This document shows positions 4,564 through 35,031 of a stretch of 36,632 nucleotides of DNA, piece after piece (the first letter of the stretch is position 1; each line of letters begins with the position of its first letter). The notes under the pieces were generated by a model. It made no database searches. It saw only the letters and a program-made list of their open reading frames with translations, and had not been told where the DNA came from. Position numbers and translations under genes: made by a program. Source of the stretch: a virus (taxonomy: Duplodnaviria > Heunggongvirae > Uroviricota > Caudoviricetes); the IMG/VR virus record IMGVR_UViG_2541047758_000014, one strand, 5' to 3'.

Positions 4564-4767
4564 ATGAACAAAAAGACCTGGTTTCGCGCATACATGTGGG
4601 TGCTGGTATGCGTCCTCGTCTCTCTCATTCTGTATGCAGGACTACTCCCCCGAATGATTTCATCAGACAGCTCCTTCCTGGTATTGCTGGGCATTTTCAT
4701 TGCCATGCTGTACCCGGCAGGCGTTGTTCGCCTTTTCAGTAAGTACATCAAGGAAATCAAACAATGA
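4564..4767 (+). CDS. Small two-helix membrane protein, possible partner of the downstream SPFH protein
   Basis: 67 aa; two hydrophobic segments (WVLVCVLVSLILYAGLL and FLVLLGIFIAMLYPAGVV); RBS aaggga; stop overlaps the next start. Confidence 0.55.
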   Translation: MNKKTWFRAYMWVLVCVLVSLILYAGLLPRMISSDSSFLVLLGIFIAMLYPAGVVRLFSKYIKEIKQ

Positions 4768-5594
4768 AGAAATTCAAACTCTTTCAGATTCTCCCGCTTT
4801 TTGCCGCCATCCTGCTGGTTGGCTGCGATCGCGTTGAGCCAGGTAATGTGGGCATCAAAGTCAACAAGCTGGGCGACGACAAAGGCGTTGGCGAAGTGGT
4901 TGGCGTTGGCCGCTACTGGACTGGCTGGAATACCGAGGTTTACATCTTCCCGACCTTCAAACAAATGAAGACCTACGATGAGCCGTTCAGCTTTCAGATG
5001 AGTGACGGCACAACCATCGGCTATCACATCGGCGTGGCTTACAAGGTTGATCCATCCAAAGTTACCACAGTGTTTCAGACCTACCGCAAAGGCGTGGATG
5101 ACATTACCGACACTGACCTGCGCCAGAAGATTGCCGATGCACTCAACCGACTGGCCAGCAAAATGACCACCGATAAGTTTATCGACGGTGGTAAGTCTGA
5201 ACTGCTGGATTCAGCACTTAAAGATATTCAGGAAGAGATGACCCCCATCGGCATTCAGGTCATGAGCCTCTCTTATGTCGGTAAACCGGAATATCCGCCA
5301 ACCGTTATCGACAGCATTAACGCCAAAGTCACGGCAAACCAGAAAACCCTGCAACGCGAACAGGAAGTCAAGCAACGCGAAGCAGAAGCCAACATGTTGC
5401 GCGCAGAAGCTGCCGGACAGGCTGATGCCATTCGCACAAAAGCCCAGGCTGAAGCCGACGCCATTCGTTTACGCGGTGAAGCTCTGCGCCAGAATCCCGG
5501 CGTTATGGAGCTGGAAGCAATCAACAAATGGAACGGCACGCTGCCGCAATACATGACCAGCAACACCGCTGTTCCGTTTGTTCCGGTGAAGTAA
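4764..5594 (+). CDS. SPFH/band-7 (prohibitin/stomatin-like) domain lipoprotein
   Basis: 276 aa; lipobox LLVGC at the N-terminus; central region and Ala/Glu/Gln-rich coiled coil typical of SPFH proteins. Confidence 0.7.
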   Translation: MKKFKLFQILPLFAAILLVGCDRVEPGNVGIKVNKLGDDKGVGEVVGVGRYWTGWNTEVYIFPTFKQMKTYDEPFSFQMSDGTTIGYHIGVAYKVDPSKVTTVFQTYRKGVDDITDTDLRQKIADALNRLASKMTTDKFIDGGKSELLDSALKDIQEEMTPIGIQVMSLSYVGKPEYPPTVIDSINAKVTANQKTLQREQEVKQREAEANMLRAEAAGQADAIRTKAQAEADAIRLRGEALRQNPGVMELEAINKWNGTLPQYMTSNTAVPFVPVK

Positions 5595-20238: not shown

Positions 20239-20692
20239 TTCCCTGCGTGAAGCCATGACCCGTTCATGCCGATGGTGTCAGGCCAACCCGGAAAAATTCA
20301 CCATTTTCGTGGAGAGCGGCAACATTGAAACGACAGGAGAAACCCCATCGTTTGTTTACCGCTATCAGATGGTGATGTTTGTCATGGATTACGCCGGGGG
20401 GCTGGATGACCTCACGCTGCCGCTGCTGGCGTGGTTATCCGAAAATCAGCCACAGTTGTTGCTCAACCCTGAGCGTAATCAGGACATCAAATTCTCCGCC
20501 GTTATCAATGACGATGACAGCGCCGACCTCCTGTTTACGCTCCCCCTGCGGGAACGCATTCGCATCACGCGCAACAGTCAGGGCACACCGCAGGCAGAAC
20601 ACCTGCCGGAGCCAAAACCCCGTCTGCCCTCTTCCAAAGGCGACTGGTCGCATGTATTCCAGGATGTGACGTGGGGTGAAAGCGATGGATAA
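20225..20692 (+). CDS. R: Tail completion protein (P2 gpR-like)
   Basis: 155 aa, position after the lysis cassette. Confidence 0.8.
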   Translation: MLKTDSLREAMTRSCRWCQANPEKFTIFVESGNIETTGETPSFVYRYQMVMFVMDYAGGLDDLTLPLLAWLSENQPQLLLNPERNQDIKFSAVINDDDSADLLFTLPLRERIRITRNSQGTPQAEHLPEPKPRLPSSKGDWSHVFQDVTWGESDG

Positions 20693-21320
20693 GGCATTCA
20701 CCCGCGTGGATGAAACCTTTGAGGCCATCCGCGACAGCCTGAATCAGCAGGCCATCAATAACATCGCCAGAAAGCTGGCACAGGATTTACGCCGCGCCCA
20801 GCAGGCGCGTATCCGGTCACAGAAAGCGCCGGACGGGACCGCGTGGACACCACGCAGACGCCGCGTAACCCGGATACAGGAACGCATTCGCTTTATCTGG
20901 AATAACGAAGCACGCACGCTGAAAAACTGGCATCACGACACGGGGAAATACGGGCGAACCATTACCGGGTGGGATGAGGATAAAAACAATATCCGCACGT
21001 TTTACCGGGATGACATCGACCGTTTTCTGGAAATACGCACCCGGCGCATCAACCAGGACAGCACAAAGCGCGTCCCCATGTTCGTAAAACTGCGCACCGC
21101 CCGCTACCTGAAAGCCCGTGCAGATGCTTCCGGTGTGACGGTGGGTTACAGCGGCGTGGCCGCACGTATTGCCCGCGTTCATCAGTTCGGTGAGCGCGAT
21201 CAGGTTGCGCCGGGCATTTTCACCGATTACCCGGTACGTGAGCTGCTGGGTATCAGCCAGGCAGATGAGCGCCTGATTTATAACACGGTGCTGGGCCGGA
21301 TTGCGGAGGCTGTACGGTGA
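20676..21320 (+). CDS. S: Tail completion / virion morphogenesis protein (P2 gpS-like)
   Basis: 214 aa, overlaps the R stop; start could also be the ATG at 20685. Confidence 0.75.
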   Translation: MKAMDKAFTRVDETFEAIRDSLNQQAINNIARKLAQDLRRAQQARIRSQKAPDGTAWTPRRRRVTRIQERIRFIWNNEARTLKNWHHDTGKYGRTITGWDEDKNNIRTFYRDDIDRFLEIRTRRINQDSTKRVPMFVKLRTARYLKARADASGVTVGYSGVAARIARVHQFGERDQVAPGIFTDYPVRELLGISQADERLIYNTVLGRIAEAVR

Positions 21321-21898
21321 GCGCAGAACTCATGCGACTGCTGAGCAATATCATCCGCACCGGGATCATCTCTGAAGTTGATGAGAAGTCCTGGCGCGTG
21401 CGCGTTCGCAGCGGCGAACTGGAAACAGGATGGTTGCGCTGGAACACCACGCGCGCGGGAGCTTTCAATGTGTGGCTGCCGCCATCACCCGGCGAACAGG
21501 TGGTAATTGCCTGCATTGGCGGCAACCCGGAAACCGCCATGATAATTGGCAGCCTGTGGAGTGATGCCAATCCGGCACCCGGCAAAAGCCTGAAAGAAAT
21601 CGTGGTCAGCGCGCCGGATGGCGCGGTGTTCAGCTACGACGCGGACGCAGGCGCACTGAGCGCCAGCGGCATGAAAACGGCCACTTTACAGGCATCCGTC
21701 AGCGTGACACTGGACACGCCCGTCGTGGAATGCACAGACCTTCTGAGAACGGCGACGCTTGACGTCACAAAAGGGGGAAAGATGAGCGGCAATATCACGC
21801 ACAGCGGCGGCAATTTCACCTCAAACGGCATTACCGTGCATACGCATAAACACGGTGGCGTGAAAGGTGGCAGCGATTCGACAGGAGGCCCGCAGTGA
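21317..21898 (+). CDS. V: Baseplate spike protein (P2 gpV-like)
   Basis: 193 aa; GTG start at 21317 (or ATG at 21332); Gly-rich C-terminus. Confidence 0.8.
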   Translation: MSAELMRLLSNIIRTGIISEVDEKSWRVRVRSGELETGWLRWNTTRAGAFNVWLPPSPGEQVVIACIGGNPETAMIIGSLWSDANPAPGKSLKEIVVSAPDGAVFSYDADAGALSASGMKTATLQASVSVTLDTPVVECTDLLRTATLDVTKGGKMSGNITHSGGNFTSNGITVHTHKHGGVKGGSDSTGGPQ

Positions 21899-22245
21899 CA
21901 ACCCGCTACACAGGAATGAACCCGGACGGAACGGGAAACCTGAACGATATGGAGCACCTGAAACAGTCAGTCAGGGACATCCTGACCACCCCGCTGGCAA
22001 GCCGGGTTATGCGACGGGAATATGGCAGCCTTGTGCCTGATTTGATTGACGAACCCATGAATAACACCACGCGTCTGCAATGCATGAGTGCTGCCGTGAT
22101 TGCGCTGACACGATGGGAACCCCGCATTGCCCTGGATGCCATCGACGTTGTCTGGAAAGCGGGAGGCCGCGCCGGGGTGACGCTGTCGGGCACTGTCATG
22201 CAGACCATGCAGAATGTTGAATTAACCATCACGCTGAGGGAGTAA
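21895..22245 (+). CDS. W: Baseplate wedge protein (P2 gpW-like)
   Basis: 116 aa, translationally coupled to V. Confidence 0.8.
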   Translation: MTTRYTGMNPDGTGNLNDMEHLKQSVRDILTTPLASRVMRREYGSLVPDLIDEPMNNTTRLQCMSAAVIALTRWEPRIALDAIDVVWKAGGRAGVTLSGTVMQTMQNVELTITLRE

Positions 22246-22248
22246 ATC

Positions 22249-23145
22249 ATGCCCGCCGTTGACCTTTCACAGTTACCGGAACCCGCCATCATCGCGGAGC
22301 CTGACTTTGAGGCAATTCTGGCTGACACAAAGGCCATGATGATTGCGTCCTATCCTGCCGAACAGCGTGAAGCCGTCTCCGCCGCGCTGGAGCTGGAATC
22401 AGAACCCCTGAACGTTATCGCTCAAACCATGTCGTTTCGTGAAATGCTGTTACGCCAGCGGGTTAACGAGGGCGCACGCGCCTGCATGTTAAGCCACGGT
22501 TCAGGGACAAACCTGGACAACCTCGCGGGCAATATGAACACAAAGCGCCTGGTTATCACTCCGGCAACGGATACCACCGACGCGGTGATGGAGAGCGACA
22601 CCTCGCTGAGACTGCGGGCGCAGCGGGCGTACGACGGCCTGAGTGTTGCTGGCCCGTCAGGTGCATACGAGTATTTTGCCCGCAGCGCCAGCGGTCTGGT
22701 GCGTGATGCGCGGGCTATCAGTCCGTCTCCGGCAAATGTGACGGTTTCCATCCTGTCCACTGAAGGCGACGGCACGGCAACGGAGGCGTTGCTTAATACC
22801 GTTCGCGCCGTTCTGAATGCAGAGGATACCCGCCCGGTGGCCGACCGCCTGACCGTACAGAGCGCCAGCATCGTGACATGGCGGCTGAATGCAAAACTGT
22901 ACTTTTACCCCGGTCCGGAATCCGAACCTATTCTGGCCGCGGCGGAATCGTCATTCAGGAAGTGGCTGGCTGAACAGGGGCTTATCGGTCAGGACGTGGC
23001 GTTGTCCGCCATTGCTGCCGCACTGCATGTGCACGGTGTGCAACGCGTGGAGATAATCGAACCCACACAGAATATGTCCATCAGCGACATACAGGCGGCG
23101 CGCTGTGAGTCATTCACCATCAGCGAAGGTGGGCGTAATGAGTAA
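22249..23145 (+). CDS. J: Baseplate protein (P2 gpJ-like)
   Basis: 298 aa. Confidence 0.85.
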   Translation: MPAVDLSQLPEPAIIAEPDFEAILADTKAMMIASYPAEQREAVSAALELESEPLNVIAQTMSFREMLLRQRVNEGARACMLSHGSGTNLDNLAGNMNTKRLVITPATDTTDAVMESDTSLRLRAQRAYDGLSVAGPSGAYEYFARSASGLVRDARAISPSPANVTVSILSTEGDGTATEALLNTVRAVLNAEDTRPVADRLTVQSASIVTWRLNAKLYFYPGPESEPILAAAESSFRKWLAEQGLIGQDVALSAIAAALHVHGVQRVEIIEPTQNMSISDIQAARCESFTISEGGRNE

Positions 23146-23668
23146 TTCACTGTTACCGCCATCAGCCAGCAATTTCATGCGTTGTGCCGAAGCTGTCGGA
23201 ACGCGCATTACAGACATCCCGGTAGACCTCAACACGCTGTGGTCGCCGGACACCTGCCCGGTGCACCTGCTGCCTTATCTCGCCTGGGCATTTTCCGTTG
23301 ACCGCTGGGATCGCAACTGGCCGGAAGAGACAAAACGACAGGTGATTCGTGATGCATGGCTGATACACCGACACAAGGGAACCATCAGCGCACTGCGCCG
23401 GGCCATTGAGCCGCTGGGATACCTCATTCGTGTGTCTGAGTGGTGGGAGTTCGGCGGAGAACCGGGAACATTTACCGTTGAAGTGGGCACGCTGGACAGT
23501 GGCGTGACGGAGGAAATGTATCTGGAAATGGAGCGGTTGATTGCTGATGCCCGCCCGGTCAGCCGCCACATGACAGGGCTGAATATCATTCAGGAGATCC
23601 CTGGAGATATTTTCGCGGCGGCAGCAACTTACGACGGTGAAGTCATTACCATTTATCCGGACGATTAA
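23138..23668 (+). CDS. I: Baseplate protein (P2 gpI-like)
   Basis: 176 aa from ATG 23138 (MSNSLLPPSAS...) inside track ORF 23105..23668. Confidence 0.8.
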   Translation: MSNSLLPPSASNFMRCAEAVGTRITDIPVDLNTLWSPDTCPVHLLPYLAWAFSVDRWDRNWPEETKRQVIRDAWLIHRHKGTISALRRAIEPLGYLIRVSEWWEFGGEPGTFTVEVGTLDSGVTEEMYLEMERLIADARPVSRHMTGLNIIQEIPGDIFAAAATYDGEVITIYPDD

Positions 23669-23670
23669 GC

Positions 23671-25524
23671 ATGAGTACCACAACACGAAAATTTAAAACC
23701 GTTATCACCGATACGGGTGCAAAAAAATTAGCGCAGGCAGCCGCGCCAGATGGTAAGCCTGTCCGCCTGACTCATATGGCCGTGGGCGACGGTGGCGGTA
23801 CATTGCCCACACCTGACAGTAAGCAGACCCGTCTGGTGCATGAGGTGTGGCGACATACTGTTAATCGCGTCATCCTGGACGCAACACATCAGAACCGCAT
23901 TATTGCAGAGCTGGTTATTCCTCCTGAAACGGGCGGATTCTGGATCCGGGAAATTGGTGTATTTGATGAGCACGGCGATTTAATCGCGGTGGGCAATACT
24001 GCCGAAAGTTACAAGCCAGCCGTTGCCGAAGGGTCCGGTCGTGCACAAACATTTCGCACCATTCTGACCGTATCCAGCACAGCCACCGTGGCGCTTACCG
24101 TGGATAACACCATGGTGATGGCCACAGTGGATTACGTGGATGACAAACTGAAAGAGCATGAACAGTCACGACGTCACCCGGACGCCTCGCTGACCGCAAA
24201 AGGCTTTGTTCAACTCAGTAGCGCCACCAACAGCGCGTCTGAAACGCAGGCTGCAACGCCGAAAGCAGTAAAGGCCGCGTATGACCTTGCTAACGCAAAA
24301 TATACCGCTCAGGACGCCACGACGGCACAAAAAGGGATAGTCCAGCTCAGTAGTGCCACCAACAGCACGTCTGAAACACTGGCCGCGACATCGAAAGCGG
24401 TTAAGGCGGTAATGGATGAAACGAACAAGAAAGCGCCCTTAAACAGTCCTGCGCTGACCGGAACGCCAACAACGCCAACTGCGCGACAGGGAACGAATAA
24501 TACCCAAATCGCAAGCACGGCTTTCGTTATGGCTGCGATTGCCGCCCTTGTAGATTCGTCACCTGACGCACTGAATACGCTGAACGAGTTAGCGGCGGCG
24601 CTGGGAAACGACCCGAATTTTGCGACCACCATGACTAACGCGCTTGCGGGTAAGCAACCGAAAGATGCCACCCTGACGGCGCTGGCCGGGCTTGCTACTG
24701 CGGCAGACAGGTTTCCGTATTTTACGGGGAATGATGTCGCCAGCCTGGCACCCCTGACAAAAGTCGGGCGGGATATTCTTGCGAAATCGACCGTTGCTGC
24801 CGTTATCGAATACCTCGGTTTACGAGAACTCGGCACAAGCGGGGAGAAAATACCGTTACTCAGTACAGCGAATACCTGGACCAATCGACAAACATTCAGC
24901 GGTGGCCTTTCTGGGGAACTGTCCGGCAATGCCGCTACTGCAACAAAGCTGAAAACAGCACGAAAAATTGCTGGAGTTGGTTTTGATGGTTCTAGCGATA
25001 TTTCAATTAGTGCCAAAAATGTCAATGCATTTGCACTCCGACAAACAGGTAATACTGTTAATGGTGATACATCCGTTGGATGGAATTGGGATAGTGGTGC
25101 ATATAACGCCATGATTGGTGGTGCATCTGCATTAATTCTTCACTTTAATATAAATGCTGGTAGCTGTCCTGCCGTACAATTCCGTGTGAATTATAAAAAT
25201 GGTGGCATTTCCTACAGGTCGGCTCGTGATGGTTATGGGTTTGAATTAGGTTGGTCAGATTTCTATACCACGACACGAAAACCTTCAGCGGGAGATGTTG
25301 GTGCATATACGCGGGCAGAATGTAACTCAAGGTTTATTACAGGTATTCGCCTTGGCGGTCTGTCATCTGTTCAGACATGGAATGGTCCCGGCTGGTCTGA
25401 CAGGTCAGGTTATGTCGTTACGGGTTCAGTTAACGGAAACCGTGATGAATTAATTGATAAAACACAGGCAAGGCCAATTCAGTATTGCATTAATGGGACG
25501 TGGTATAACGCGGGGAGTATTTAA
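23671..25524 (+). CDS. H: Tail fibre protein (P2 gpH-like); variable C-terminal part lies on the invertible segment
   Basis: 617 aa; internal duplication QLSSATNS-SET-AAT-KAVKA; C-terminus RPIQYCINGTWYNAGSI parallels the alternative cassette on the other strand. Confidence 0.85.
   Translation: MSTTTRKFKTVITDTGAKKLAQAAAPDGKPVRLTHMAVGDGGGTLPTPDSKQTRLVHEVWRHTVNRVILDATHQNRIIAELVIPPETGGFWIREIGVFDEHGDLIAVGNTAESYKPAVAEGSGRAQTFRTILTVSSTATVALTVDNTMVMATVDYVDDKLKEHEQSRRHPDASLTAKGFVQLSSATNSASETQAATPKAVKAAYDLANAKYTAQDATTAQKGIVQLSSATNSTSETLAATSKAVKAVMDETNKKAPLNSPALTGTPTTPTARQGTNNTQIASTAFVMAAIAALVDSSPDALNTLNELAAALGNDPNFATTMTNALAGKQPKDATLTALAGLATAADRFPYFTGNDVASLAPLTKVGRDILAKSTVAAVIEYLGLRELGTSGEKIPLLSTANTWTNRQTFSGGLSGELSGNAATATKLKTARKIAGVGFDGSSDISISAKNVNAFALRQTGNTVNGDTSVGWNWDSGAYNAMIGGASALILHFNINAGSCPAVQFRVNYKNGGISYRSARDGYGFELGWSDFYTTTRKPSAGDVGAYTRAECNSRFITGIRLGGLSSVQTWNGPGWSDRSGYVVTGSVNGNRDELIDKTQARPIQYCINGTWYNAGSI
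24802..24827. other. gix/hix-like crossover site inside H (left end of invertible segment)
   Basis: ttatcgaatacctcggtttacgagaa matches the reverse complement of the 27481..27506 site at 21 of 26 positions with a perfect 11-bp core cctcggtttac. Confidence 0.7.
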
Positions 25525-25526
25525 CG

Positions 25527-26060
25527 ATGATGCACTTAAAAAACATTACTGCTGGCAACCCTAAAACAAAAGAGCAATACCAGCTAACAAAGCAATTTAA
25601 CATCAAATGGCTTTATTCAGATGATGGAAAAAACTGGTATGAGGAACAAAAGAATTTCCAGCCAGACACTTTGAAAATGGTCTATGACCATAACGGCGTT
25701 ATTATTTGTATTGAAAAGGATGTTTCAGCAATTAATCCGGAAGGCGCAAGCGTCGTTGAATTACCTGATATTACAGCAAATCGCCGGGCTGATATTTCGG
25801 GGAAATGGTTGTTCAAAGATGGCGTAGTGATAAAGCGAACTTATACCGAGGAAGAGCAGAGGCAACAAGCGGAAAATGAAAAGCAAAGCCTGTTGCAACT
25901 TGTCAGGGATAAAACCCAGCTATGGGACTCACAGCTACGGCTGGGCATCATTTCCGACGAGAATAAACAAAAATTAACCGAGTGGATGCTCTATGCGCAG
26001 AAAGTCGAATCTACAGACACCTCCAGCCTGCCAGTAACGTTTCCCGAACAACCAGAATGA
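25527..26060 (+). CDS. G: Tail fibre assembly protein (P2 gpG-like)
   Basis: 177 aa; N-terminus [22 protein letters not shown] conserved with the inverted copy. Confidence 0.8.
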   Translation: MMHLKNITAGNPKTKEQYQLTKQFNIKWLYSDDGKNWYEEQKNFQPDTLKMVYDHNGVIICIEKDVSAINPEGASVVELPDITANRRADISGKWLFKDGVVIKRTYTEEEQRQQAENEKQSLLQLVRDKTQLWDSQLRLGIISDENKQKLTEWMLYAQKVESTDTSSLPVTFPEQPE

Positions 26061-26062
26061 GA

Positions 26063-26090
26063 GAAGGCCCGATATTGGGCCTTAATTTTT
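26063..26090. terminator. Bidirectional hairpin between convergent G and G'
   Basis: aaggccc-gatatt-gggcctt at 26064..26083 followed by aattttt. Confidence 0.5.
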
Positions 26091-26616
26091 ACTCAGGCTT
26101 TTGTGGCCATTCGGGATTTGCTGTATCCACACGGCTGACCAGAACGCTGTAGCGTTCCCATGACTCCAGTCGTGTGCGTTCCTCATCCGTCGCCATATTC
26201 AGCCTGACAGCGCGTTCCAGTGGCTGAATAACGCTTTCAGCTTCAGAAAGCAACGCGACCTTTTGTGATTCGGCCTGTTGTTGCTGTTCGTCTGCTGTAT
26301 AAATCCGCTTAACCACAGTTCCGTTCTTAAACATCCACTTCCCTGAATCATCGGCACGACGATTGGCTGTTATATCTGGAATCTCAACGACACTAAAGCC
26401 TTCGGGATTAAGCGTTGAGGCATCTTTGGTTATGGCAACAATAATATTATTTTCGTCGTATACAATCTTTATGGTGTCGTCCTGAAAGTTATTTACTTCC
26501 TCATACCAGTTTTTACCGTCTTCGGACCATAACCAGATAACATCAAAATTCTTTGTTAGCTGATATTGTTCTTTTGTTTTTGGATTTCCGGACTTAATAT
26601 TTTTTAAATGCTGCAT
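26089..26616 (-). CDS. Alternative tail fibre assembly protein (G')
   Basis: 175 aa; [24 protein letters not shown]... paralogous to G, opposite strand. Confidence 0.8.
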
Positions 26617-26619
26617 AAT

Positions 26620-27498
26620 TTACACCTGTGCGACGTTATACCATGTGCCATTGATGTATTTTTGTATTGGTCTGAAGATGGCTTCATCATCGCCATCTAC
26701 TTCACCAATGATTCTTAATCCGGTAATTGCGTGTCCGGCTTTTTCATAACGACCACCACGCGCCATCAATTGAACAACACGCGTACCCAGGCGAACATCT
26801 TTTACATAGCGTGAATCAAAATTCCCCCAGTTGCTGGGCTGTATCTGACCGTTAACAGAAAATATTACCGAGTTATCTGTATTTCGCTGGCTATAGAAAT
26901 GCCATCCTGCCTCATCGCCTAACTCTGCAACTACTGGACGGGTTGAAGCACCCCATAAATTAAACGTTGCATTCTTTGTGGAGGTGTTGGAGCTGGATAG
27001 CGAGAACTTTTTACTATCACCTGCCTGAATGTTTTTAAAAGCAATAGCAACTCCATTCTGAAAGCGGAATACTCGCTGACTATTAGCGTAAACATCCAGA
27101 ATGCCATCACCATTCTGTTTGAATCCGGTGTCATTATCACCAAGAACAATAGAGCTACCACCTAACGCATTCGTCGTACCAACTCCAAGACTGCCATTAA
27201 TGACGGCATTTACCAGAATATTTAGTGCATCCCATTTCAGCGTCATCAGGTCTTTTGTTGTGGTGCTCTGGCGGCTTCTCCATTTGAAATATTCATTGCC
27301 GTTGTCGCCTGTTTCAAACCACATGTATGAATCAGTGTCACCATCAGCATCATTTTTAAATCCAATCTTCGCCCAGTCAGTATTTCGAATCCAGGCAAGG
27401 ATTGAGTCATTTTCAAAAGTAAGCCCACCGGACAAGGTATCGCCATTTTTTTGCACGGCGTTACCAGCCCTGTTTACCGTTTCCTGTAAACCGAGGTT
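26620..27498 (-). CDS. Alternative tail fibre C-terminal cassette (promoterless; fused to H constant part after inversion)
   Basis: Track ORF 26620..27456; frame stays open upstream through the gix site to 27498; C-terminus RPIQKYINGTWYNVAQV parallels H. Confidence 0.7.
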   Translation of the reverse strand, partial: NLGLQETVNRAGNAVQKNGDTLSGGLTFENDSILAWIRNTDWAKIGFKNDADGDTDSYMWFETGDNGNEYFKWRSRQSTTTKDLMTLKWDALNILVNAVINGSLGVGTTNALGGSSIVLGDNDTGFKQNGDGILDVYANSQRVFRFQNGVAIAFKNIQAGDSKKFSLSSSNTSTKNATFNLWGASTRPVVAELGDEAGWHFYSQRNTDNSVIFSVNGQIQPSNWGNFDSRYVKDVRLGTRVVQLMARGGRYEKAGHAITGLRIIGEVDGDDEAIFRPIQKYINGTWYNVAQV

Positions 27499-27506
27499 TT
27501 AAATAA
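27481..27506. other. gix-like crossover site (right end of invertible segment)
   Basis: ttcctgtaaaccgaggttttaaataa, nearly identical to the Mu gix sequence as I recall it (TTCCTGTAAACCGAGGTTTTGGATAA). Confidence 0.75.
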
Positions 27507-27542
27507 TGGCCGTTTCTGGCCTGCATGGCATGATTTGCGCTT

Positions 27543-28160
27543 TTGGACGGGAGATTCAGTGTGCTGATTGGCTATGTAAGGGTATCAACAAATGACCAGA
27601 ATACAGACCTGCAACGAAACGCTCTTGTTTGTGCAGGATGTGAACAAATATTTGAAGATAAATTAAGCGGGACAAAGACAGACCGACCGGGATTAAAACG
27701 CGCTTTAAAGCGCCTTCAAAAAGGTGACACGCTGGTTGTCTGGAAACTGGATCGCCTCGGGCGAAGCATGAAACATCTGATTTCTCTCGTCGGGGAACTA
27801 CGGGAGCGAGGGATTAATTTTCGCAGTCTGACCGACAGCATAGACACATCTTCTCCAATGGGGCGTTTTTTCTTCCACGTGATGGGTGCCCTGGCTGAAA
27901 TGGAACGTGAATTAATTGTTGAACGTACACTGGCCGGGCTGGCGGCAGCGCGCGCAAGGGGGCGCACAGGCGGACGTCGACCGAAGCTGACAAAAGAACA
28001 GCATGAGCAAATAGCAAGGCTAATCAAAAACGGGCACGACAGAAAACAACTGGCAATAATTTACGGCATTGGCACATCGACGATTTATCGTTATCACCCT
28101 GTAGGCGATATACAGACTGAAGAAACAACCGGGCAGACTCAGGAAAATGAAAACCGCTAA
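27543..28160 (+). CDS. Serine DNA invertase (Gin/Pin/Cin/Hin family)
   Basis: Contains LIGYVRVSTNDQNTDLQRNAL, the conserved N-terminus with the catalytic Ser, and a C-terminal HTH; track start is non-ATG (TTG at 27543), GTG at 27561 is a likely true start. Confidence 0.85.
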   Translation: MDGRFSVLIGYVRVSTNDQNTDLQRNALVCAGCEQIFEDKLSGTKTDRPGLKRALKRLQKGDTLVVWKLDRLGRSMKHLISLVGELRERGINFRSLTDSIDTSSPMGRFFFHVMGALAEMERELIVERTLAGLAAARARGRTGGRRPKLTKEQHEQIARLIKNGHDRKQLAIIYGIGTSTIYRYHPVGDIQTEETTGQTQENENR

Positions 28161-28184
28161 TCTGACCATTAGCGGTTTTTGTGT
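28150..28184. terminator. Bidirectional terminator between convergent invertase and U
   Basis: Perfect 11-bp arms aaaccgctaat / attagcggttt with 6-nt loop, followed by ttgtgtt; T-rich on the other side too. Confidence 0.6.
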
Positions 28185-28188
28185 TAAA

Positions 28189-28683
28189 TCAGAACAGCCC
28201 TTTAACTGAACTGGCCGCGCTGTTAAGAGATGATGTCACCTTATCTTTGAAGCCGGACAGCATATCACTGAACGATGAGGATTGCAGGCGCTCCCGCAAA
28301 TCCTCATCACAGCGTTCAAGGGTCAGTGAAAATTCTATCTTTTTCGCCTTACCGTAGCGATCAAACTCGGAACGGGTCGTATTCGTTTCAGTCAGCACAT
28401 ACATGCCGTAAATCTGCCCGACACCATCAATCAGAGGCCAGGGGCGTCCTGTATATGCCTGCGTGGTCAGCAACGAAAGCGACACTTCGCCACCTGTAAT
28501 TTCAGGATAAAGCACGCCGGAAAGCACAATGCGATCATCACCTGCACCTATATACTGCCAGCTTGCTGAACGGTTAACGCGTTCATTTTTCACATGCCGC
28601 CAGCTTTTGTTTTGCTGTAACTGCTGATGCGGCAGTGTGCGCAGCTCAAAAACAAACATGCCGTAGATCATCATCATGACCAT
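28189..28683 (-). CDS. U: Tail protein (P2 gpU-like)
   Basis: 164 aa; directly downstream of the tape measure gene on the same strand. Confidence 0.8.
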   Translation of the reverse strand: MVMMMIYGMFVFELRTLPHQQLQQNKSWRHVKNERVNRSASWQYIGAGDDRIVLSGVLYPEITGGEVSLSLLTTQAYTGRPWPLIDGVGQIYGMYVLTETNTTRSEFDRYGKAKKIEFSLTLERCDEDLRERLQSSSFSDMLSGFKDKVTSSLNSAASSVKGLF

Positions 28684-28689
28684 GACTCC

Positions 28690-31533
28690 TCAATCTTTAT
28701 CGTAAAAACTGCCACGTCCGGCACGGGCGCGCCGTTCCATCTCTGCCCTGACCATTTCACCGACCAGTTTCGCCAGTTCGCGGGGATTCTGCGTAACAAC
28801 GTTATGCAGATGAACATGAATTTCACCGCCAAATCTGGAGACAGCAGGCTCCCGATTACGGGAAGCTGCAGGAACTGATGCCACTGGCGATCGTATGGCC
28901 TCCGCCACCGGGCGGGAGCTGGCCGCAACAACAGGGACCAGCGCCGGAGGCAGCGGAGCCGGGACTACGGGTGTGATATTAATTGCGGGGGCAGGCTTAC
29001 TGACCTGCGCAATCTTCCGCTCCTGCCACTCCCCACGAACAGCAAGTGCGCGGGGCAGGTTCTTAAAGACAATATCGCCAGGGCCAATGCGTTTTTTCGT
29101 CTCATCAACCAGCTTACCTGTGTTATCAGCAATTTTGCTGAGTCTGCGTAGCGTCCCGGTATTGCTGTCTGTGAGCGGTTTGTTGTCTTTGGGTTTATCA
29201 CCTCCGGTGCCATTGCCATTTTCCACAGGCTTCGGCGGATTGATTTTCGCAAGGTCCCCCTGAAGCAAGGCAACCTTGTCCTGAAGAATGGCCGCACGCT
29301 GTGCGTCTTCGATTTTCTTGCGCGCCCTTTCCGCTTCATCCGGAAGCACACCGAGCTTTTCAAGTATCCACGCCAGCGTATCCAGCAACATTTTTGCAGG
29401 TATCAGAACAAGTTGTAACGCACCGCCAAGAACGTTACCGAATATCTCGCCAGCACTGGTACATTTATCCAGCGTTTCCTTGCTGGACTCCATCGGTGAC
29501 AGCAGCGATTTAAACCAGTTAAACACCTGGCTTATCCCGCTTCCGATTGCGTCAAAAACAGGACCAAACCGTTCAAAGGTTTCGCGCAACGGGGCCAGCC
29601 GCTCCATAATCCCACTGAACACCCCGGCAAAAAATGCCCTGATTGGGTCCCAGTATTTCCAGATAAGAATGGCAGCTCCGGCAAGCGCAGCCACGATAAG
29701 ACCAACCGGACTGAACAGCGCCCCGATAGCGCCCCCCAGTAACGAAACGGAACCCGTCACCATTCCCCATAGTGCTGGCAGAACCCTGACAGCATTCATT
29801 GATCCGGTCAGGAGGGAAAAACCAAGACGCAGTTTTGCCAGCGGGCCAGCAAGCACACCAATAGCCAGCGACAACGAGCCAACCGTTGCAGTCATTGCCA
29901 GCAGTGCACCGCCTGCAATCAGTAGCTGGCGCGTCAGTGCGGGATGGGCCTGCGCCAGCGCCGTCACCTTTGATACCACACGCGTGAGCCACTGCGTGAC
30001 AGAACGCAGCGGACCGTCAATCAGATCTGCAATGCGGATGCGCAACCCTTCCCATGCACTGCTGAGTGATTTCAGATCGCCGTCAAGGTTGTTGGCCATA
30101 ACCTTTGCCGTGCGTTCAGCCTCACCGCGCGCGCCTTCAAGTTCTTTTCTCAGTTTGGGTAAGGAGCCGTCACCTGCCGCATCAACGAGGGCCATAAATG
30201 ATGTGAAAGCCTCTTCTCCGGCAATGTCCTTAAAGAACGATACCCGGTCAACTTCCCCGTATTTGCGGGTAGCTTTATAAAGGTCAGCCAGCACATCCTC
30301 CATCGGGCGCATTTTGCCCCCGGCATCCGAGACAGACACGCCAAGCTCTTTCAGCGCCTCTGCTGCCGCCTTTGGCGGTGATGCCAGACGAGCCAGGCTG
30401 GCACGCATTGCCGTACCAGCATCACTCCCCCTGATACCCATATTCGCCAGCACGCCCGCCATCGCTGCGGCCTGCTCCAGCGATATTCCCAGCTTACCCG
30501 CCACCGGACCTGCATATTTCATGGTTTCACCCAGTGCGCGAAGGTCAGTGTTGGTACGGGTAAACGCTGCGGTGAGTGTGTCGCCGACCCGGTCCATCTG
30601 GTCAGCAGAAAGACCGAACTGCGTCAGAATATTTGAGCCAATATCCGCCGTCTCACCGAGGTCCATACCGCCAGCCGTTGCCATGCTCAGTACGCCAGGG
30701 AGCGCAGCCTGAATGGCCTGTGGTGTGAAGCCAGCCATTGCAAGAAATGCCTGCCCACTGGCGGCATCGCCTGCGGTGAACTGCGTTTCAGAGCCAAGTT
30801 TTAACGCCTGCTCACGCAGCGCCTTAAACTGCGGGCTGTTTTTGTCGATTCGCGTCAGTGCCTGAACGCGGGACATCTCTTTCCCGAACCCGATCGCAGG
30901 CTGCAAAAAACGCCCGGCAGCATAGCCGCCCGCCGCTGCCGCACCAATTGCCAGCGCACCACCTGTTTTCAGTTTTCCCGCTGTTTCCTGCGCGCGCGAA
31001 TACCGCTCACGCGCCTGCGTTACACGCGCAAGCGCCTGCCGTTCGCGTTCAAGCTGGTTGTTGTACTGTTCGGTGCGTCTGATGGCCTGCTGGATGGTGT
31101 TATCGCTGCCTGTCAGGGAAATGCCGTGGCGTTTCAGCTCTCCGCCAATCTCCCGCATTTTCTGAATTTCCCGTGTGCGCGATTCATTCAGGCGTTCAAG
31201 CCGGGTGCTTAACTGCTGCATCAGCTTTTGTTGTTTTTCGCTGAGCACTGTACCCGTGCGTTGTAACTGATTAAGGGCGTTAAGCTGGCGTCGTGCTTTC
31301 ACGATACCCGCATCCGCTTTACTGACAGCGTCGCGGGCGCGCTCAAATGAACGCGCCTGACGCTCGAGATTTTTGATCGCCCCCTGCGTTCGCTGGATGG
31401 AGTCACCAAACTGCCCCATCAGGCGGCGGGCGTTTTCGGCAGGCCGGGTCAGCCTGTCAACGGCGCTGAAAGCGACCCGGATGTCAAGAGTCTTCATTGT
31501 CTGCATTCCCGCTGCGAAGTGCCGCCCGCTCAC
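28690..31533 (-). CDS. T: Tail tape measure protein (P2 gpT-like)
   Basis: 947 aa; Ala/Gly-rich with coiled-coil N-terminus and hydrophobic central region. Confidence 0.85.
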   Translation of the reverse strand: MSGRHFAAGMQTMKTLDIRVAFSAVDRLTRPAENARRLMGQFGDSIQRTQGAIKNLERQARSFERARDAVSKADAGIVKARRQLNALNQLQRTGTVLSEKQQKLMQQLSTRLERLNESRTREIQKMREIGGELKRHGISLTGSDNTIQQAIRRTEQYNNQLERERQALARVTQARERYSRAQETAGKLKTGGALAIGAAAAGGYAAGRFLQPAIGFGKEMSRVQALTRIDKNSPQFKALREQALKLGSETQFTAGDAASGQAFLAMAGFTPQAIQAALPGVLSMATAGGMDLGETADIGSNILTQFGLSADQMDRVGDTLTAAFTRTNTDLRALGETMKYAGPVAGKLGISLEQAAAMAGVLANMGIRGSDAGTAMRASLARLASPPKAAAEALKELGVSVSDAGGKMRPMEDVLADLYKATRKYGEVDRVSFFKDIAGEEAFTSFMALVDAAGDGSLPKLRKELEGARGEAERTAKVMANNLDGDLKSLSSAWEGLRIRIADLIDGPLRSVTQWLTRVVSKVTALAQAHPALTRQLLIAGGALLAMTATVGSLSLAIGVLAGPLAKLRLGFSLLTGSMNAVRVLPALWGMVTGSVSLLGGAIGALFSPVGLIVAALAGAAILIWKYWDPIRAFFAGVFSGIMERLAPLRETFERFGPVFDAIGSGISQVFNWFKSLLSPMESSKETLDKCTSAGEIFGNVLGGALQLVLIPAKMLLDTLAWILEKLGVLPDEAERARKKIEDAQRAAILQDKVALLQGDLAKINPPKPVENGNGTGGDKPKDNKPLTDSNTGTLRRLSKIADNTGKLVDETKKRIGPGDIVFKNLPRALAVRGEWQERKIAQVSKPAPAINITPVVPAPLPPALVPVVAASSRPVAEAIRSPVASVPAASRNREPAVSRFGGEIHVHLHNVVTQNPRELAKLVGEMVRAEMERRARAGRGSFYDKD

Positions 31534-32013
31534 GCCAGCTAACCACTTCGCCGGGCGTCATCATGAAGATTTCGGCGGGCGACCAGTTAAAAATAACGGC
31601 AATATCTGCCACAAAGTCTTCTATGTGCTCAAAGCACACAACCGTGATCAGGCTTCCGTCGCCTGTTCGTTCTTCCCGCCAGAGTCCGCACCGCTCAAAA
31701 AATTTACGGCAACCACACATAACTGAATAAAGTCACGGGATGCCATTTTTTTGATCGTCACTTCATCCAGTCGCGGTGATGTCACGCGTGACAGCAGCGT
31801 AAACATGGATTCCGCTTTCAGATTCAGCACATCAGACAGCGACAAATCTCGCAGAGATCCAGCCTGCTCAATAGCCCCGGTGATCTCCACATACGTGATT
31901 TTTTCGCCGCCTCGCTCAATTGGTTGGGTAAGTTTTACGCCACGCTCACTGGTTTCTTTCACAGTGTCAGCAACTACCGTGTTTTCGGTATCGATGTTTT
32001 TCGTCTCTTTCAT
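31484..32013 (-). CDS. E+E' fusion by programmed -1 frameshift
   Basis: After a -1 slip at TTTTTTG the reading continues ...AVNF-FERCGLWREERTG... into the 31484..31720 frame; matches the conserved E/E' arrangement of P2-type tails. Confidence 0.6.
31648..32013 (-). CDS. E: Tail assembly chaperone (P2 gpE-like)
   Basis: 121 aa; contains slippery heptamer T-TTT-TTG (plus coordinates 31696..31702) in the E frame. Confidence 0.75.
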   Translation of the reverse strand: MKETKNIDTENTVVADTVKETSERGVKLTQPIERGGEKITYVEITGAIEQAGSLRDLSLSDVLNLKAESMFTLLSRVTSPRLDEVTIKKMASRDFIQLCVVAVNFLSGADSGGKNEQATEA

Positions 32014-32067
32014 CAGGAAACTCCTTTCAGTCAGAGGCGACGCACTGCGCCGCCTGCATATTACTTA

Positions 32068-32580
32068 TCAGCCAAGCCCAAGCGCGGAACGGATGCGATC
32101 GGGCACAATGTCCTTGCCGTCCTTCCGGTAAATGAAGTTCAGCAGGTCAATCTCCCACAGCGGGCGATCGTTAACGCTCAGCTTGTAGTAGGTGTTTTTA
32201 ATGGCGTAAGAGTGTGATGTGGCTTCGCCCTGTTTGGCTTCCCCCATATCAATTTCCGTCACACGTCCGCGCATTTCGACTTCATACAGGTCGCTTTCTG
32301 CATCGGTGTAGTATTCACCCGCAAAACGCAGCAGCGTGCCGTCAATCGTGCCGCCATACTTAAGGAACAGCTCACGAACTGCGCCCCCCATGACAAAGCT
32401 CGCATCAAGCGCGGAGTCGTCCAGACCGAGATCAATACTTACCGCACCCATCATGCCACCACCCCGGTAGCTGTCGGTTTTGCGCGTCAGCTTAGGCAGA
32501 GTGACGGACGTCACCTTACCCACTTCGTTTTCACCATCCACAAACAGCGTAAAAAAGCGAAGATGTTTTGGCACAGCCAT
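32068..32580 (-). CDS. FII: Tail tube protein (P2 gpFII-like)
   Basis: 170 aa, downstream of and coupled to the sheath gene. Confidence 0.85.
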   Translation of the reverse strand: MAVPKHLRFFTLFVDGENEVGKVTSVTLPKLTRKTDSYRGGGMMGAVSIDLGLDDSALDASFVMGGAVRELFLKYGGTIDGTLLRFAGEYYTDAESDLYEVEMRGRVTEIDMGEAKQGEATSHSYAIKNTYYKLSVNDRPLWEIDLLNFIYRKDGKDIVPDRIRSALGLG

Positions 32581-33764
32581 CAGGCACCTCCCAGCACCGC
32601 AAATGCGGGTTCAAAGTATTCATCAGTAAACGTCTGGTAAAGCTCCATATCTTCCAGCGGGGGAACAGGCGTATATTTGTAGCGAATACGCACACGCCCC
32701 TGACGTAAATCCGTGGTGCTGTTATCCACCACGTCATACCAGCACTCCGCGCCAATCAGTTTCCCGGCAGTAACCAGTGAATCCAGTTTTGCCCTGATGG
32801 CACTGATAACATCCTTCACGTTCGCAGGCGTCAGTGGACTGTCGATGGTTTCAAACTGCGCTTCCGCAATTGAATCAGCCAACACCTGTGCGGTTCGGGT
32901 ATACACCTCAAAGATGTAGGCGTTCGTTTCCGGTGTGCGGTTGCCCCAGAAGCGGAACCCGTTGCGACGAATAATGGTCGTGATTTCTTTGTTGTTGAGG
33001 CTGTTGGCATCACTGTCTTCGGCCTGCAACGACCAGAACACATGCCTGGACATCCCCAGCACATTTTTAACCGGAACGTTGGACAGCGATTTGTGCCAGC
33101 CCTGTTCATGGTCAATGTACGCACGGAGGCCGCACGCATAGGCAGGCGCGGGGAACGTTTCGTTTTTGCCACTTTTCGGGTTGTAGGCGATGAAGTCCGG
33201 CCATAAGAGCATCACCTCACGTTCGTTGAATTTCTGGCGGTAGGTAATCGCCTCAGCCATCGTGTTACAGCCGTGACATGAGGCATACACAAACGCGCGC
33301 AGTTTACCTGCAATCACGCACAGGGATTTTGTTACAGCCTCCGTGTCCAGCTCCGGCGCGGCCAGAATACGCGGACGGTATCCGATGCTTTCATCCTGCT
33401 CTGCAACAAGCAGCGCATACATCCCCGTATAGCTGCCGTCATCCTCAGAACCACCGATAACCAGTTGATCCTGCGTCTTTCCGTCTTCTTCTTTGTGTTC
33501 AGCCACGCGAACGACGATCACCTTTGTGCTCACCTGGTCTGCAATGGCCTTAAGCGCACGATAAAGCGTCCCCGTTGTCCCGCATTTTCCCAGCACGTCA
33601 TTGACGCGGGTCAGCAGTGTGGGCTTGTTCAGCGGGAACAGCTTCGCGTCCGCATCATCCGCCGTTGCCACGATACCGATAACGCTGGAATCAACATCGT
33701 TAATCGCTGTTACCAGGTCGGTATTTTCCGTAACACGGGCACCATGAAAACGAGTTTCACTCAT
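32580..33764 (-). CDS. FI: Contractile tail sheath protein (P2 gpFI-like)
   Basis: 394 aa; FPLNKP...GTLYRALKAIADQ resembles P2 FI. Confidence 0.9.
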   Translation of the reverse strand: MSETRFHGARVTENTDLVTAINDVDSSVIGIVATADDADAKLFPLNKPTLLTRVNDVLGKCGTTGTLYRALKAIADQVSTKVIVVRVAEHKEEDGKTQDQLVIGGSEDDGSYTGMYALLVAEQDESIGYRPRILAAPELDTEAVTKSLCVIAGKLRAFVYASCHGCNTMAEAITYRQKFNEREVMLLWPDFIAYNPKSGKNETFPAPAYACGLRAYIDHEQGWHKSLSNVPVKNVLGMSRHVFWSLQAEDSDANSLNNKEITTIIRRNGFRFWGNRTPETNAYIFEVYTRTAQVLADSIAEAQFETIDSPLTPANVKDVISAIRAKLDSLVTAGKLIGAECWYDVVDNSTTDLRQGRVRIRYKYTPVPPLEDMELYQTFTDEYFEPAFAVLGGA

Positions 33765-33921
33765 AGCTTCAGCCCCTTGTATCCGTTAAATGATTCGGCA
33801 ACAATCATCACCCACCACGCGCGTAATCTCACCCCTGCGCCGTTCTCCCGACCCGGCGACAACAAAAAGCAGTAACCCCCTCCGCACGCACATGCGACCA
33901 TGCCGCACAGGGAGGAAACAG

Positions 33922-35031
33922 ATGACCGACACCACCATGCAATTGCTCAGTCAGGGCACAGACCCCGTGAAAATGCCGGATTTTGATATTCTTGCGGAGG
34001 GTAAAACGCTGTCAGGCGTGGCAGAGCGCCTGATGAGCCTGTCACTGACCGACAACCGGGGATTTGAGGCGGACCAGCTCACCATCACGCTGGATGATGC
34101 GGATGGTCAGTTGCAGCTACCGCCACGGGGCGCGCGCCTGACGGTTCTCATTGGCTGGAAAGGAGAACCGCTGACAGAAAAAGGCACTTACATTGTTGAT
34201 GAAATCGCTCACGAAGGACCGCCGGACAGGCTGACTGTTTCAGCCAGAAGCGCAGATTTTCGGGATGAATTTAACGTTAAACGTGAGGTGTCCTGGCATG
34301 ATGTGACCCTTGAGCGTGTGGTATCCGCCATCGCTCATCGGTATGGTCTGAAACCACAAATCAGCGAAATGCTGATGGATATCGAAATCGACCACGCCGA
34401 CCAGACCGAAGAAAGCGACATGTCCTTCCTTACGCGCATGGCGGAAATGCTGGGCGCAATCACCACGGTAAAAAGCGGTAATCTGTTATTCATCATGCCA
34501 GGCGGTGGCGTGAACGCACAGGGCCAGCCGTTGCCCTCGTTCGCCATCACGCGCAGCAGTGGCGATCGCCATCAGTTCCGCATTGCTGACCGCGAAGCGT
34601 ATACGGGGGTACGCGCTTACTGGCTTGATCTTAATTACGGGAAAAAGAAAAAAGTCAGCGTGAAACGCCGCAAACCGCCAAAACCCAAAAAGGAGAAAAG
34701 CAGCAGCCGTGAAGGTGATTATATGGAAGGCGCAGAAGGCAATGTGTTTGTGTTACGCAAGACTTATCAGAACGAGCAGGCAGCAAGACGCGCAGCGGCG
34801 GCAAAGTGGCAGCAGCTACAACGCGGAGCCGCAGCGTTCTCCATCACACTGGCACGTGGACGCGCAGAACTCTACCCCGAAATGCATGGCACGGTAACAG
34901 GATTTAAAAGCGAAATTGATAATCAGGACTGGATTATTGCAAAAGCCGAGCACACCATTGATAACAGTGGCTTTACCACGCAGCTTGAGCTTGAAGCCAA
35001 AATCCCGGAATGGATAGCAGAAACAGAGTAA
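33922..35031 (+). CDS. D: Tail protein D (late control gene D family)
   Basis: Start at ATG 33922 with RBS gggagga inside track ORF 33790..35031; 369 aa. Confidence 0.85.
   Translation: MTDTTMQLLSQGTDPVKMPDFDILAEGKTLSGVAERLMSLSLTDNRGFEADQLTITLDDADGQLQLPPRGARLTVLIGWKGEPLTEKGTYIVDEIAHEGPPDRLTVSARSADFRDEFNVKREVSWHDVTLERVVSAIAHRYGLKPQISEMLMDIEIDHADQTEESDMSFLTRMAEMLGAITTVKSGNLLFIMPGGGVNAQGQPLPSFAITRSSGDRHQFRIADREAYTGVRAYWLDLNYGKKKKVSVKRRKPPKPKKEKSSSREGDYMEGAEGNVFVLRKTYQNEQAARRAAAAKWQQLQRGAAAFSITLARGRAELYPEMHGTVTGFKSEIDNQDWIIAKAEHTIDNSGFTTQLELEAKIPEWIAETE

Follow-up and report, generated by a model that had tools for sequence, protein, structure and literature searches.

Our analysis indicates, at a probability of roughly 0.93, that this P88-like Escherichia coli prophage carries a functional inversion switch of the Gin/Cin/Pin type (Din family), which controls the receptor-binding end of its tail fibre. 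Within the window, i.e., the whole stretch of 36,632 nucleotides that was analysed, 2.68 kb of DNA between two inverted crossover sites hold the variable part of the fibre gene H and a tail-fibre assembly (tfa) gene on the plus strand, and an alternative fibre C-terminus with a second tfa gene on the minus strand (Table 1). The switch is of an ordinary, already known type, with the Mu G segment as a close relative. The initial annotation of this DNA had proposed an invertible host-range switch on a P2-like tail fibre, and its overall interpretation is supported by the comparisons described below.

Crossover sites, fibre cassettes and invertase

Positions 1-23600 of the window matched phage P88 at 97.2% identity over 83%, and Pfam identified a P2-type gene set (Phage_GPA, GPD, P2 GpU, Tail_P2_I, Baseplate_J). 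The nearest phage records are classified as Xuanwuvirus. By nucleotide identity and gene content, the P2-like chassis that had been recognised initially can be assigned more exactly to a P88-like prophage of Xuanwuvirus (Peduoviridae, the P2 family).

Table 1. Coordinates of the switch and adjacent features in the window.
Feature	Position	Strand	Sequence, product or basis
Tail-fibre gene H, whole ORF	23671..25524	+	617-aa product
H constant N-terminal part, 382 codons	23671..24816	+	Pfam Phage_tail_fib 3.4e-54, two Phage_fiber_2 repeats
Left crossover site, gixL-like	24803..24828		TTATCGAATACC TC GGTTTACGAGAA; inside H coding sequence, reading ..I E Y L G L R E..
H variable C-terminal part, currently expressed	24817..25524	+	blastp
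tfa G, tail-fibre assembly chaperone, current orientation	25527..26060	+	177 aa; Caudo_TAP 1.1e-36
tfa G', silent alternative tail-fibre assembly chaperone	26089..26616	-	175 aa; Caudo_TAP 3.2e-36
H', silent promoterless alternative fibre C-terminus	26620..27492	-	290 codons; translation, blastp
Right crossover site, gixR-like	27481..27506		TTCCTGTAAACC GA GGTTTTAAATAA
Serine DNA invertase	27561..28160	+	199 aa; starts with GTG, like Mu gin; Resolvase 1.5e-50, HTH_7 4.4e-13
Presumed recombinational enhancer (sis equivalent)	27561..27670		In invertase gene 5' end; identity to Mu gin
Hairpin (I17)	28150..28179		Perfect 12-bp stem, 6-nt loop, with flanking runs of A and T; invertase and gpU genes converge on it

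The two crossover sites lie in an inverted repeat of 30 nt with 80% complementarity (I2; 24799-24828 and 27481-27510). Compared in inverted orientation, they match at 21 of 26 positions, with all five differences in the outer and inner flanks, and have the central dinucleotide in common (TC in the left site; GA on the plus strand, equal to TC on the minus strand, in the right site). The Mu gix sequences, read directly from NC_000929, agree with the right site at 24/26 positions (gixR) and with the left site at 22/26 (gixL), which bears out the earlier description of the right site as near-identical to Mu gix; the right-hand position given at that time was also accurate, and the left-hand one (24802..24827) was off by one base. 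Exactly two copies of the 13-nt core WACCTCGGTTTAC were found, one per strand, compared with 0.00 expected (100 shuffles), and five shuffles of 12 kb contained no inverted pair of 26-mers that reached 21/26 identity; chance can therefore be excluded. By sequence, these are gix-like crossover sites of the Din type, in inverted orientation and with matching asymmetric central dinucleotides. A third, 14-nt core, ATACCGAGGTTTAC, is present in an SPFH/Band-7 gene (4930-4943; AWACCNNGGTTTAC was matched three times versus 0.01 expected). It was rejected as a working third site, given that its outer half-site bases mismatch and that a synthetic control junction between this core and the left site was detected in none of 5,426 complete E. 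coli genomes. Shufflons, such as those of R64, p15B Min and the enteropathogenic (EPEC) P2-like locus, are recognised by at least three sites and more than two arrangements; only two full sites were found in the window.

The constant part of H runs to the crossover dinucleotide and is common to both fibre isoforms. According to blastp, the last 165 aa of the variable part share 88% identity with Mu S' of the G(-) type and G shares 97% with Mu U'; on the opposite strand the values are 97% for G' against Mu U and 46% for H' against the variable part of Mu S. The two fibre tips share only ~30% identity over their last ~110 aa and the two chaperones are 56% identical to each other; the segment includes one further inverted similarity (I1, 40 nt at 78%). 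Both Caudo_TAP genes are convergent, each placed 3' of its own fibre tip. Open reading frames and Pfam domains agree with the gene content initially described for these ~2.7 kb, and protein similarity makes the cassettes homologous to the Mu G segment.

On the minus strand, the H' frame reads from the cassette across the central dinucleotide and on for two further codons, until a TAA at 27500-27502, in the outer half of the right site, closes it. The initial statement that this frame stays open through the crossover site accordingly holds as far as those two codons, and not for the outer half-site. Because the outer half-site with its TAA is left behind on inversion, the fusion is in frame: inversion in silico at the central dinucleotide yielded the expected H fusion with the other tip, an in-frame fibre of 672 aa that is identical at 669/672 residues to the annotated fibres of E. 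coli NU14 and phage P88_4B11. Both orientations, with products of 617 and 672 aa, are in frame and are followed by their own chaperone, as is typical of Mu G-segment-type switches.

The adjacent gene encodes a protein with 85% overall identity to Mu Gin, aligning over residues 1-183 with the Gin structure PDB 4m6f (E=3e-100). Identity reaches ~99% in the catalytic domain (residues 1-120) and falls to ~50% in the DNA-binding domain, which is Hin-like (match to the Hin domain 1hcr, 4.5e-13), and the gene is mosaic relative to Mu gin beyond ~nt 372. The alignments place this serine invertase in the Gin/Hin class of the Din family. Loss of the catalytic serine had been named initially as evidence that would speak against a switch; Ser9 is present, within the motif GYVRVSTNDQ of the alignment to 4m6f. 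A TTG start at 27543 in the ORF list was rejected in favour of the GTG at 27561, the annotated start in Mu gin and in WP_000905061.1, the invertase of E. coli UTI89 and NU14, to which the protein is identical at 199/199 residues. Contact with Fis and the enhancer has been attributed to Hin Q151, R154 and L155 and to basic residues at positions 47, 48 and 51 (PMC3798978). The equivalents of Hin Q151-I-S-R154-L155 are kept as q-i-a-r-l in the alignment to 1hcr, and the helix-B region is identical to that of Gin, such that the Fis-contact residues are conserved by alignment.

The first 110 nt of the invertase gene match the start of the Mu gin coding sequence at every position (110/110). Kahmann and co-workers are reported to have mapped the Mu enhancer within gin (Kahmann et al. 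1985, Cell 41:771). A G-N13-C scan of this region yielded two candidate Fis cores (27582-27596 and 27631-27645, ~95 bp from the right-site centre) at a spacing of 49 bp, and Fis sites in the Hin and Gin enhancers are spaced by 48 bp; these candidates are only suggestive. The hairpin downstream of the invertase is probably a bidirectional terminator.

In the mechanism that we propose, invertase dimers would bind the two 26-bp sites and bring them into synapsis on supercoiled DNA; a Fis-bound enhancer at the beginning of the invertase gene would presumably be part of the complex. Ser9-mediated cleavage at the TC/GA dinucleotide in the centre of each site, a rotation by 180 degrees and religation would then invert the intervening 2.68 kb. 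H has its promoter and first 382 codons outside the segment, and each orientation would therefore join the same shaft to a different one of the two tips, with the corresponding chaperone next in line. The orientation in the window is the equivalent of Mu G(-), with S'/U'-like genes expressed, and the flip would result in expression of the 672-aa fibre with the other tip and the U-like chaperone. A lysogen population would thereby release phage with two adsorption specificities. Dependence on Fis, catalysis by this particular invertase and a difference in host range between the two forms are what we infer.

Natural orientations and alternative explanations

Both orientations occur naturally, with exchange inside the sites. 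Strains UTI89 and NU14 carry the same prophage, with an invertase and two sites identical to those of the window, and the only difference between their otherwise 100% identical 12,601-bp loci is a stretch of 2,662 bp that is exactly reverse-complemented and has both of its ends inside the sites; this site pair has flipped even though its left and right members differ at 5/26 positions. In phage P88_4B11, the same segment (99.4% identity) has the opposite orientation relative to its flanks. The initial annotation had called for PCR on a lysogen population to detect both orientations, and had regarded a single orientation as evidence against the switch. An in-silico PCR on 5,426 complete E. coli genomes recovered the as-is junction at full length in 159 of them; for the synthetic flipped junction the number was 356 (best identity 99.8%). 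The identical copies elsewhere suggest that the window's own copy would flip as well.

It has to be considered whether the locus might be a frozen relic, in which the orientations found in databases go back to old events or arose when inverted paralogues (tfa or fibre tip) underwent homologous recombination. The other inverted similarities in the segment (I1 and the tfa pair) would be compatible with this explanation. However, the UTI89/NU14 breakpoints fall inside the 26-bp sites and outside the tfa or tip homologies, leading us to reject recombination between these paralogues as the cause, and the complete identity of the remaining 12.6 kb implies a very recent flip between near-identical prophage copies. 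The hybrid sites of P88_4B11 were likewise exchanged exactly at the core, and flipping within single colonies has been reported at the orthologous EPEC locus (PMC4272514). A relic is, on these grounds, very improbable.

Slightly more plausible, and still improbable, is a real switch flipped mainly in trans by another Din invertase (Pin of e14, PinQ, or that of another prophage), with the adjacent gene being redundant or weak. Din invertases cross-complement, and related invertase/site loci number up to 6-7 per E. coli genome. PinQ of the Qin prophage, moreover, acts in trans by inverting the e14 P segment (PMC12529663). Such a role for the adjacent gene would nevertheless sit poorly with an intact invertase that has all catalytic and Fis-contact residues, with a Mu-identical presumed enhancer region in cis within its gene, and with the strict co-location of invertase and segment in all relatives examined. 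A further reading, prompted by the many E. coli in which several Din invertases that cross-react and several fibre cassettes occur together, is that flipping in lysogens serves for more than diversity in virion host range: the mosaic invertase would participate in a trans-acting network, and the fibre or chaperone product of one orientation would alter the host surface or block superinfecting phages, as reported for PinQ/StfE2 of e14. A weak third target might then conceivably be offered by the conserved 14-nt core in the SPFH/Band-7 gene. We consider this reading as a whole a long shot.

An inversion switch that selects between two fibre tips is the reading that we retain, and its importance lies mainly in correct annotation: the Mu G, P1 C and e14 P switches are textbook examples of the type, about one in ten complete E. 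coli genomes carries this module with an identical invertase protein, and an orthologous P2-like prophage locus has already been shown by experiment to flip. The silent cassette is often annotated as a 'hypothetical protein' or truncated pseudogene, as in the UTI89 and NU14 records, and assemblies of lysogens may be mixtures of orientations. Host-range studies of P88-like phages should consider two fibre isoforms; this includes the published study of P88 itself (PMC5285337), which contains no mention of the terms invert, inversion or invertase.

Relation to known inversion systems

Among related phages, P88, P88_4B11, 520873 and 503458 show 96-97% nucleotide identity to the window over most of the genome, and 520873 and 503458 have the same annotated order as the window (tail fiber, chaperone, assembly protein, tail fiber, DNA invertase). 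The cassettes of P88 are only ~92% identical to those of the window, and the window's H is without one 44-aa repeat unit.

The G segment of Mu with its invertase Gin (also in D108 and SfMu) has the same layout as the window: the constant fibre part lies outside, the crossover site is inside the fibre gene, two fibre-tip and chaperone cassettes converge, and the invertase, with the same GTG start, is directly outside the right site. The two systems differ in their chassis, which is a transposable Mu-like phage in one case and a P2-family (P88-like) prophage in the other, and in their constant part, a P2 H-type N-terminus of 382 aa in the window versus ~170 aa of Sc in Mu. In addition, the second tip of the window has diverged considerably from Mu S, and its invertase joins a Gin catalytic domain to a Hin-like DNA-binding domain.

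The C segments of P1 and P7 with Cin, Min of p15B, the B segment of Shigella boydii with PinB and the P segment of e14 with Pin are, like the switch proposed for the window, Din-family tail-fibre switches of the Fis/enhancer type. The cassette DNA of the window is 89-93% identical to the C-segment regions of P1, P7, D6 and RCS47; the P1 record itself annotates the S. boydii pinB locus as 93% identical. The host replicons are unlike that of the window, P1 being a plasmid prophage and e14 a defective lambdoid one, and the site core reads ..CCTTGG.. in e14 and EPEC-type systems versus ..CCTCGG.. in the window.

In the P2-like prophage of EPEC E2348/69, flipping was observed by whole-genome sequencing and PCR at NC_011601.1 1891695-1893703 (Goldberg et al. 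2014, Genome Med 6:112; PMC4272514 Table S1). This locus has the architecture of the window (V-W-J-I-H, cassettes and invertase, then convergent U-T-E-FII-FI), with an invertase at the same position that is 82% identical at the nucleotide level. However, it has three sites with pix-like cores and different cassettes, forming a small shufflon with four variants, whereas the window contains a simple two-site, two-state switch.

Crossover sites and fibre cassettes

The tail-fibre gene H reads into an inverted repeat of 30 nt that a repeat finder placed at 24799-24828 and 27481-27510 of the window (80% complementary, spacing 2,652 nt), and within the two arms lie the 26-bp recombination sites listed below. 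With one of them inverted, the two sites match at 21 of 26 positions and have an asymmetric central dinucleotide in common. The left site proposed in the initial annotation (24802..24827) holds as a site, but its coordinates do not, since it begins one base rightward. The likeness of the right site to the Mu gix sequence, noted initially, is borne out by reference sites taken from the G-segment boundaries of NC_000929 (gixL, TTATCCAAAACCTCGGTTTACAGGAA; gixR, TTCCTGTAAACCGAGGTTTTGGATAA): the right site matches gixR at 24/26 positions and the left site matches gixL at 22/26. Each strand of the window holds a single copy of the 13-nt core WACCTCGGTTTAC, two in all against 0.00 expected from 100 shuffles, and shuffled 12-kb sequences yielded no inverted 26-mer pairs agreeing at 21 or more positions. 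The site pair is real, and chance is ruled out.

Features of the invertible module in the window
Feature	Coordinates	Strand	Description
H	23671..25524	+	P2-type fibre, 617 aa; Phage_tail_fib N-terminus and fibre repeats
Left site	24803..24828		TTATCGAATACC-TC-GGTTTACGAGAA; read as 26-bp recombination site
G	25527..26060	+	Caudo_TAP chaperone
G'	26089..26616	-	second Caudo_TAP chaperone
H'	26620..27492	-	fibre C-terminal cassette without its own start
Right site	27481..27506		TTCCTGTAAACC-GA-GGTTTTAAATAA; read as 26-bp recombination site
Invertase	27561..28160	+	Resolvase and HTH_7, 199 aa

The frame of H', the silent alternative fibre C-terminus, translates as II*NLGLQETVNRAGNAVQKNGD..., its TAA (27500-27502) lying within the outer half of the right site, and H reads ..AAVIEYLGLRELGTSGEK.. 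across the left site; the central TC therefore falls in the same Leu codon of both frames. Exchange at this dinucleotide in silico gives an unbroken 672-aa fibre, in agreement with the in-frame H fusion that had been proposed. The tips (variable C-termini) of H and H' share only about 30% identity across their final ~110 residues, and the chaperones G and G' are 56% identical.

A third gix core, ATACC-GA-GGTTTAC, is present at 4923-4948 (core 4930-4943), within an ORF of the prophage early region (4764..5594, +) that encodes an SPFH/Band-7 family protein, and AWACCNNGGTTTAC has three matches in the window versus 0.01 expected. The outer half-site bases of this third core mismatch, and the junction predicted from its recombination with the left site was found in 0 of 5,426 E. 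coli genomes.

Both orientations in nature

In phage P88_4B11, window positions 24799-27510 are matched at 99.4% and reversed relative to the invertase and to the part of H preceding the crossover, with sites that are reciprocal hybrids as expected from exchange at the core. E. coli strains UTI89 and NU14 carry the prophage at the same chromosomal position; their loci (12,601 bp each) differ solely by a 2,662-bp exact reverse complement, both ends of which fall inside the 26-bp sites, and their invertases (199/199 residues) and crossover sites are identical to those of the window. Across 5,426 complete E. coli genomes, in-silico PCR recovered the as-is left junction (601-nt query) at full length in 159 and a flipped junction, assembled synthetically from window sequence, in 356 (identity up to 99.8%), with a control synthetic junction in none. 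The switch first proposed from the sequence is thus found in opposite orientations, both as the exact UTI89/NU14 flip and as the two junctions in this genome set. Barring their extra 44-aa repeat unit, the annotated NU14 and P88_4B11 fibres are identical to the predicted fusion at 669 of 672 residues.

That unit belongs to a 132-nt direct repeat of H (24180-24407; two copies, 77% identical) encoding a Phage_fiber_2 motif; the UTI89, NU14 and P88_4B11 fibres have one more unit than H of the window, and fibre shaft length therefore varies with copy number among otherwise near-identical prophages. RefSeq labels the silent fibre cassette a 'hypothetical protein' in UTI89 (locus L003, 8105-8941) and an N-terminally truncated pseudogene in NU14 (locus L004, 8270-8767), so the switch has been missed by automated annotation.

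A mosaic invertase and the probable mechanism of inversion

GTG 27561 was taken as the invertase start, being the annotated start in Mu gin and in the RefSeq orthologue. Residues 1-183 match Gin crystal-structure sequences (E=3e-100), and Ser9, the nucleophile in Gin (PMC3575834), is present, in line with the serine invertase initially noted next to the segment. Overall identity to Mu Gin is 85%, with a single difference in residues 1-120, whereas the DNA-binding domain is only ~50% identical to that of Gin and nearer to that of Hin (1hcr, E=4.5e-13). Residues reported to contact Fis or the enhancer in invertases alone, namely Hin Q151, R154 and L155 and a basic helix-B patch (PMC3798978), have conserved equivalents in the window enzyme. 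At the nucleotide level the gene shows no difference from Mu gin in its opening 110 nt and matches it at 349 positions (94%) up to nt 372; beyond a break near 27930, identity is ~50-58%. Judged from these comparisons, the invertase is clearly a mosaic of a Gin-like catalytic part and a Hin-like DNA-binding domain, a pattern that points to recombination of Din invertase genes where the two domains meet. Kahmann et al. in 1985 reportedly placed the Mu enhancer in the 5' part of gin. Given the 110 nt of identity at the start of the window gene, an enhancer is predicted there too and is probably present, some 95 bp away from the right site.

The best explanation, to which we give a probability of about 0.93, is standard Din-family inversion swapping the fibre tip together with its chaperone, which would yield phage of two adsorption specificities. 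A much less likely reading, in which other Pin-type invertases do most of the flipping in trans, would draw on documented cross-action between such enzymes (PMC12529663), but it is unnecessary given the intact cis-encoded enzyme. Related fibre/invertase loci number up to 6-7 per E. coli genome, and the invertase with the right site occurs in 620 of the 5,426 complete genomes; co-resident prophages thus have many opportunities for cross-talk among their Din invertases. That the two orientations are a frozen relic or a product of homologous recombination is contradicted by UTI89 and NU14, whose breakpoints are internal to the sites in otherwise identical loci.

Prophage setting and relation to known switches

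The window is a P2-family prophage that looks complete, with integrase, gpA, portal, terminase, capsid, lysis, baseplate V-W-J-I, H-G, sheath, tube, tape measure, U and D genes. Over 83% of its first 23.6 kb it shares 97.2% identity with phage P88, in keeping with the P2-like context assigned to the fibre, and the records closest to it are assigned to Xuanwuvirus, Peduoviridae. Unlike in canonical P2, U, tape measure, E, tube and sheath lie on the - strand (28189-33764) and V-W-J-I-H-G on the + strand (20676-26060), with gpD (33790..35031) back on +; the opposed tail-gene blocks converge precisely on the invertase and silent cassettes. Between the invertase and the convergent gpU/tape-measure/tube/sheath operon is a perfect 12-bp hairpin (28150-28179) resembling a bidirectional terminator. 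Two genes that a P2-family phage would not usually carry separate the replication module from the packaging module: a ParM/StbA actin-like segregation gene (9538-10497, +; 1.4e-81), also present in P88, and a DUF3800 gene (11045-11851, -).

A switch of this kind is textbook and already known, and close copies of the module in named phage records bear a 'DNA invertase' annotation. Flipping at an orthologous locus was previously demonstrated in EPEC E2348/69 (NC_011601.1, 1891695-1893703), where paired-end sequencing and PCR revealed single-colony cultures to be mixtures of orientations (Goldberg et al. 2014, PMC4272514); the prophage around that locus has the same architecture as the window, and the adjoining invertase is 82% identical in DNA. 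Only mildly new are the silence of the P88 host-range study (PMC5285337), which nowhere mentions the switch, the Gin/Hin-like mosaic invertase, and a silent tip well diverged from Mu S, to whose variable part it is 46% identical. G is 97% identical to Mu U' and G' 97% identical to Mu U, and the expressed tip matches Mu S' at 88% over its C-terminal 165 aa; the window orientation is therefore equivalent to Mu G(-). The invertible segments of D108, SfMu, P1, P7, D6 and RCS47 share 89-93% DNA identity with that of the window.
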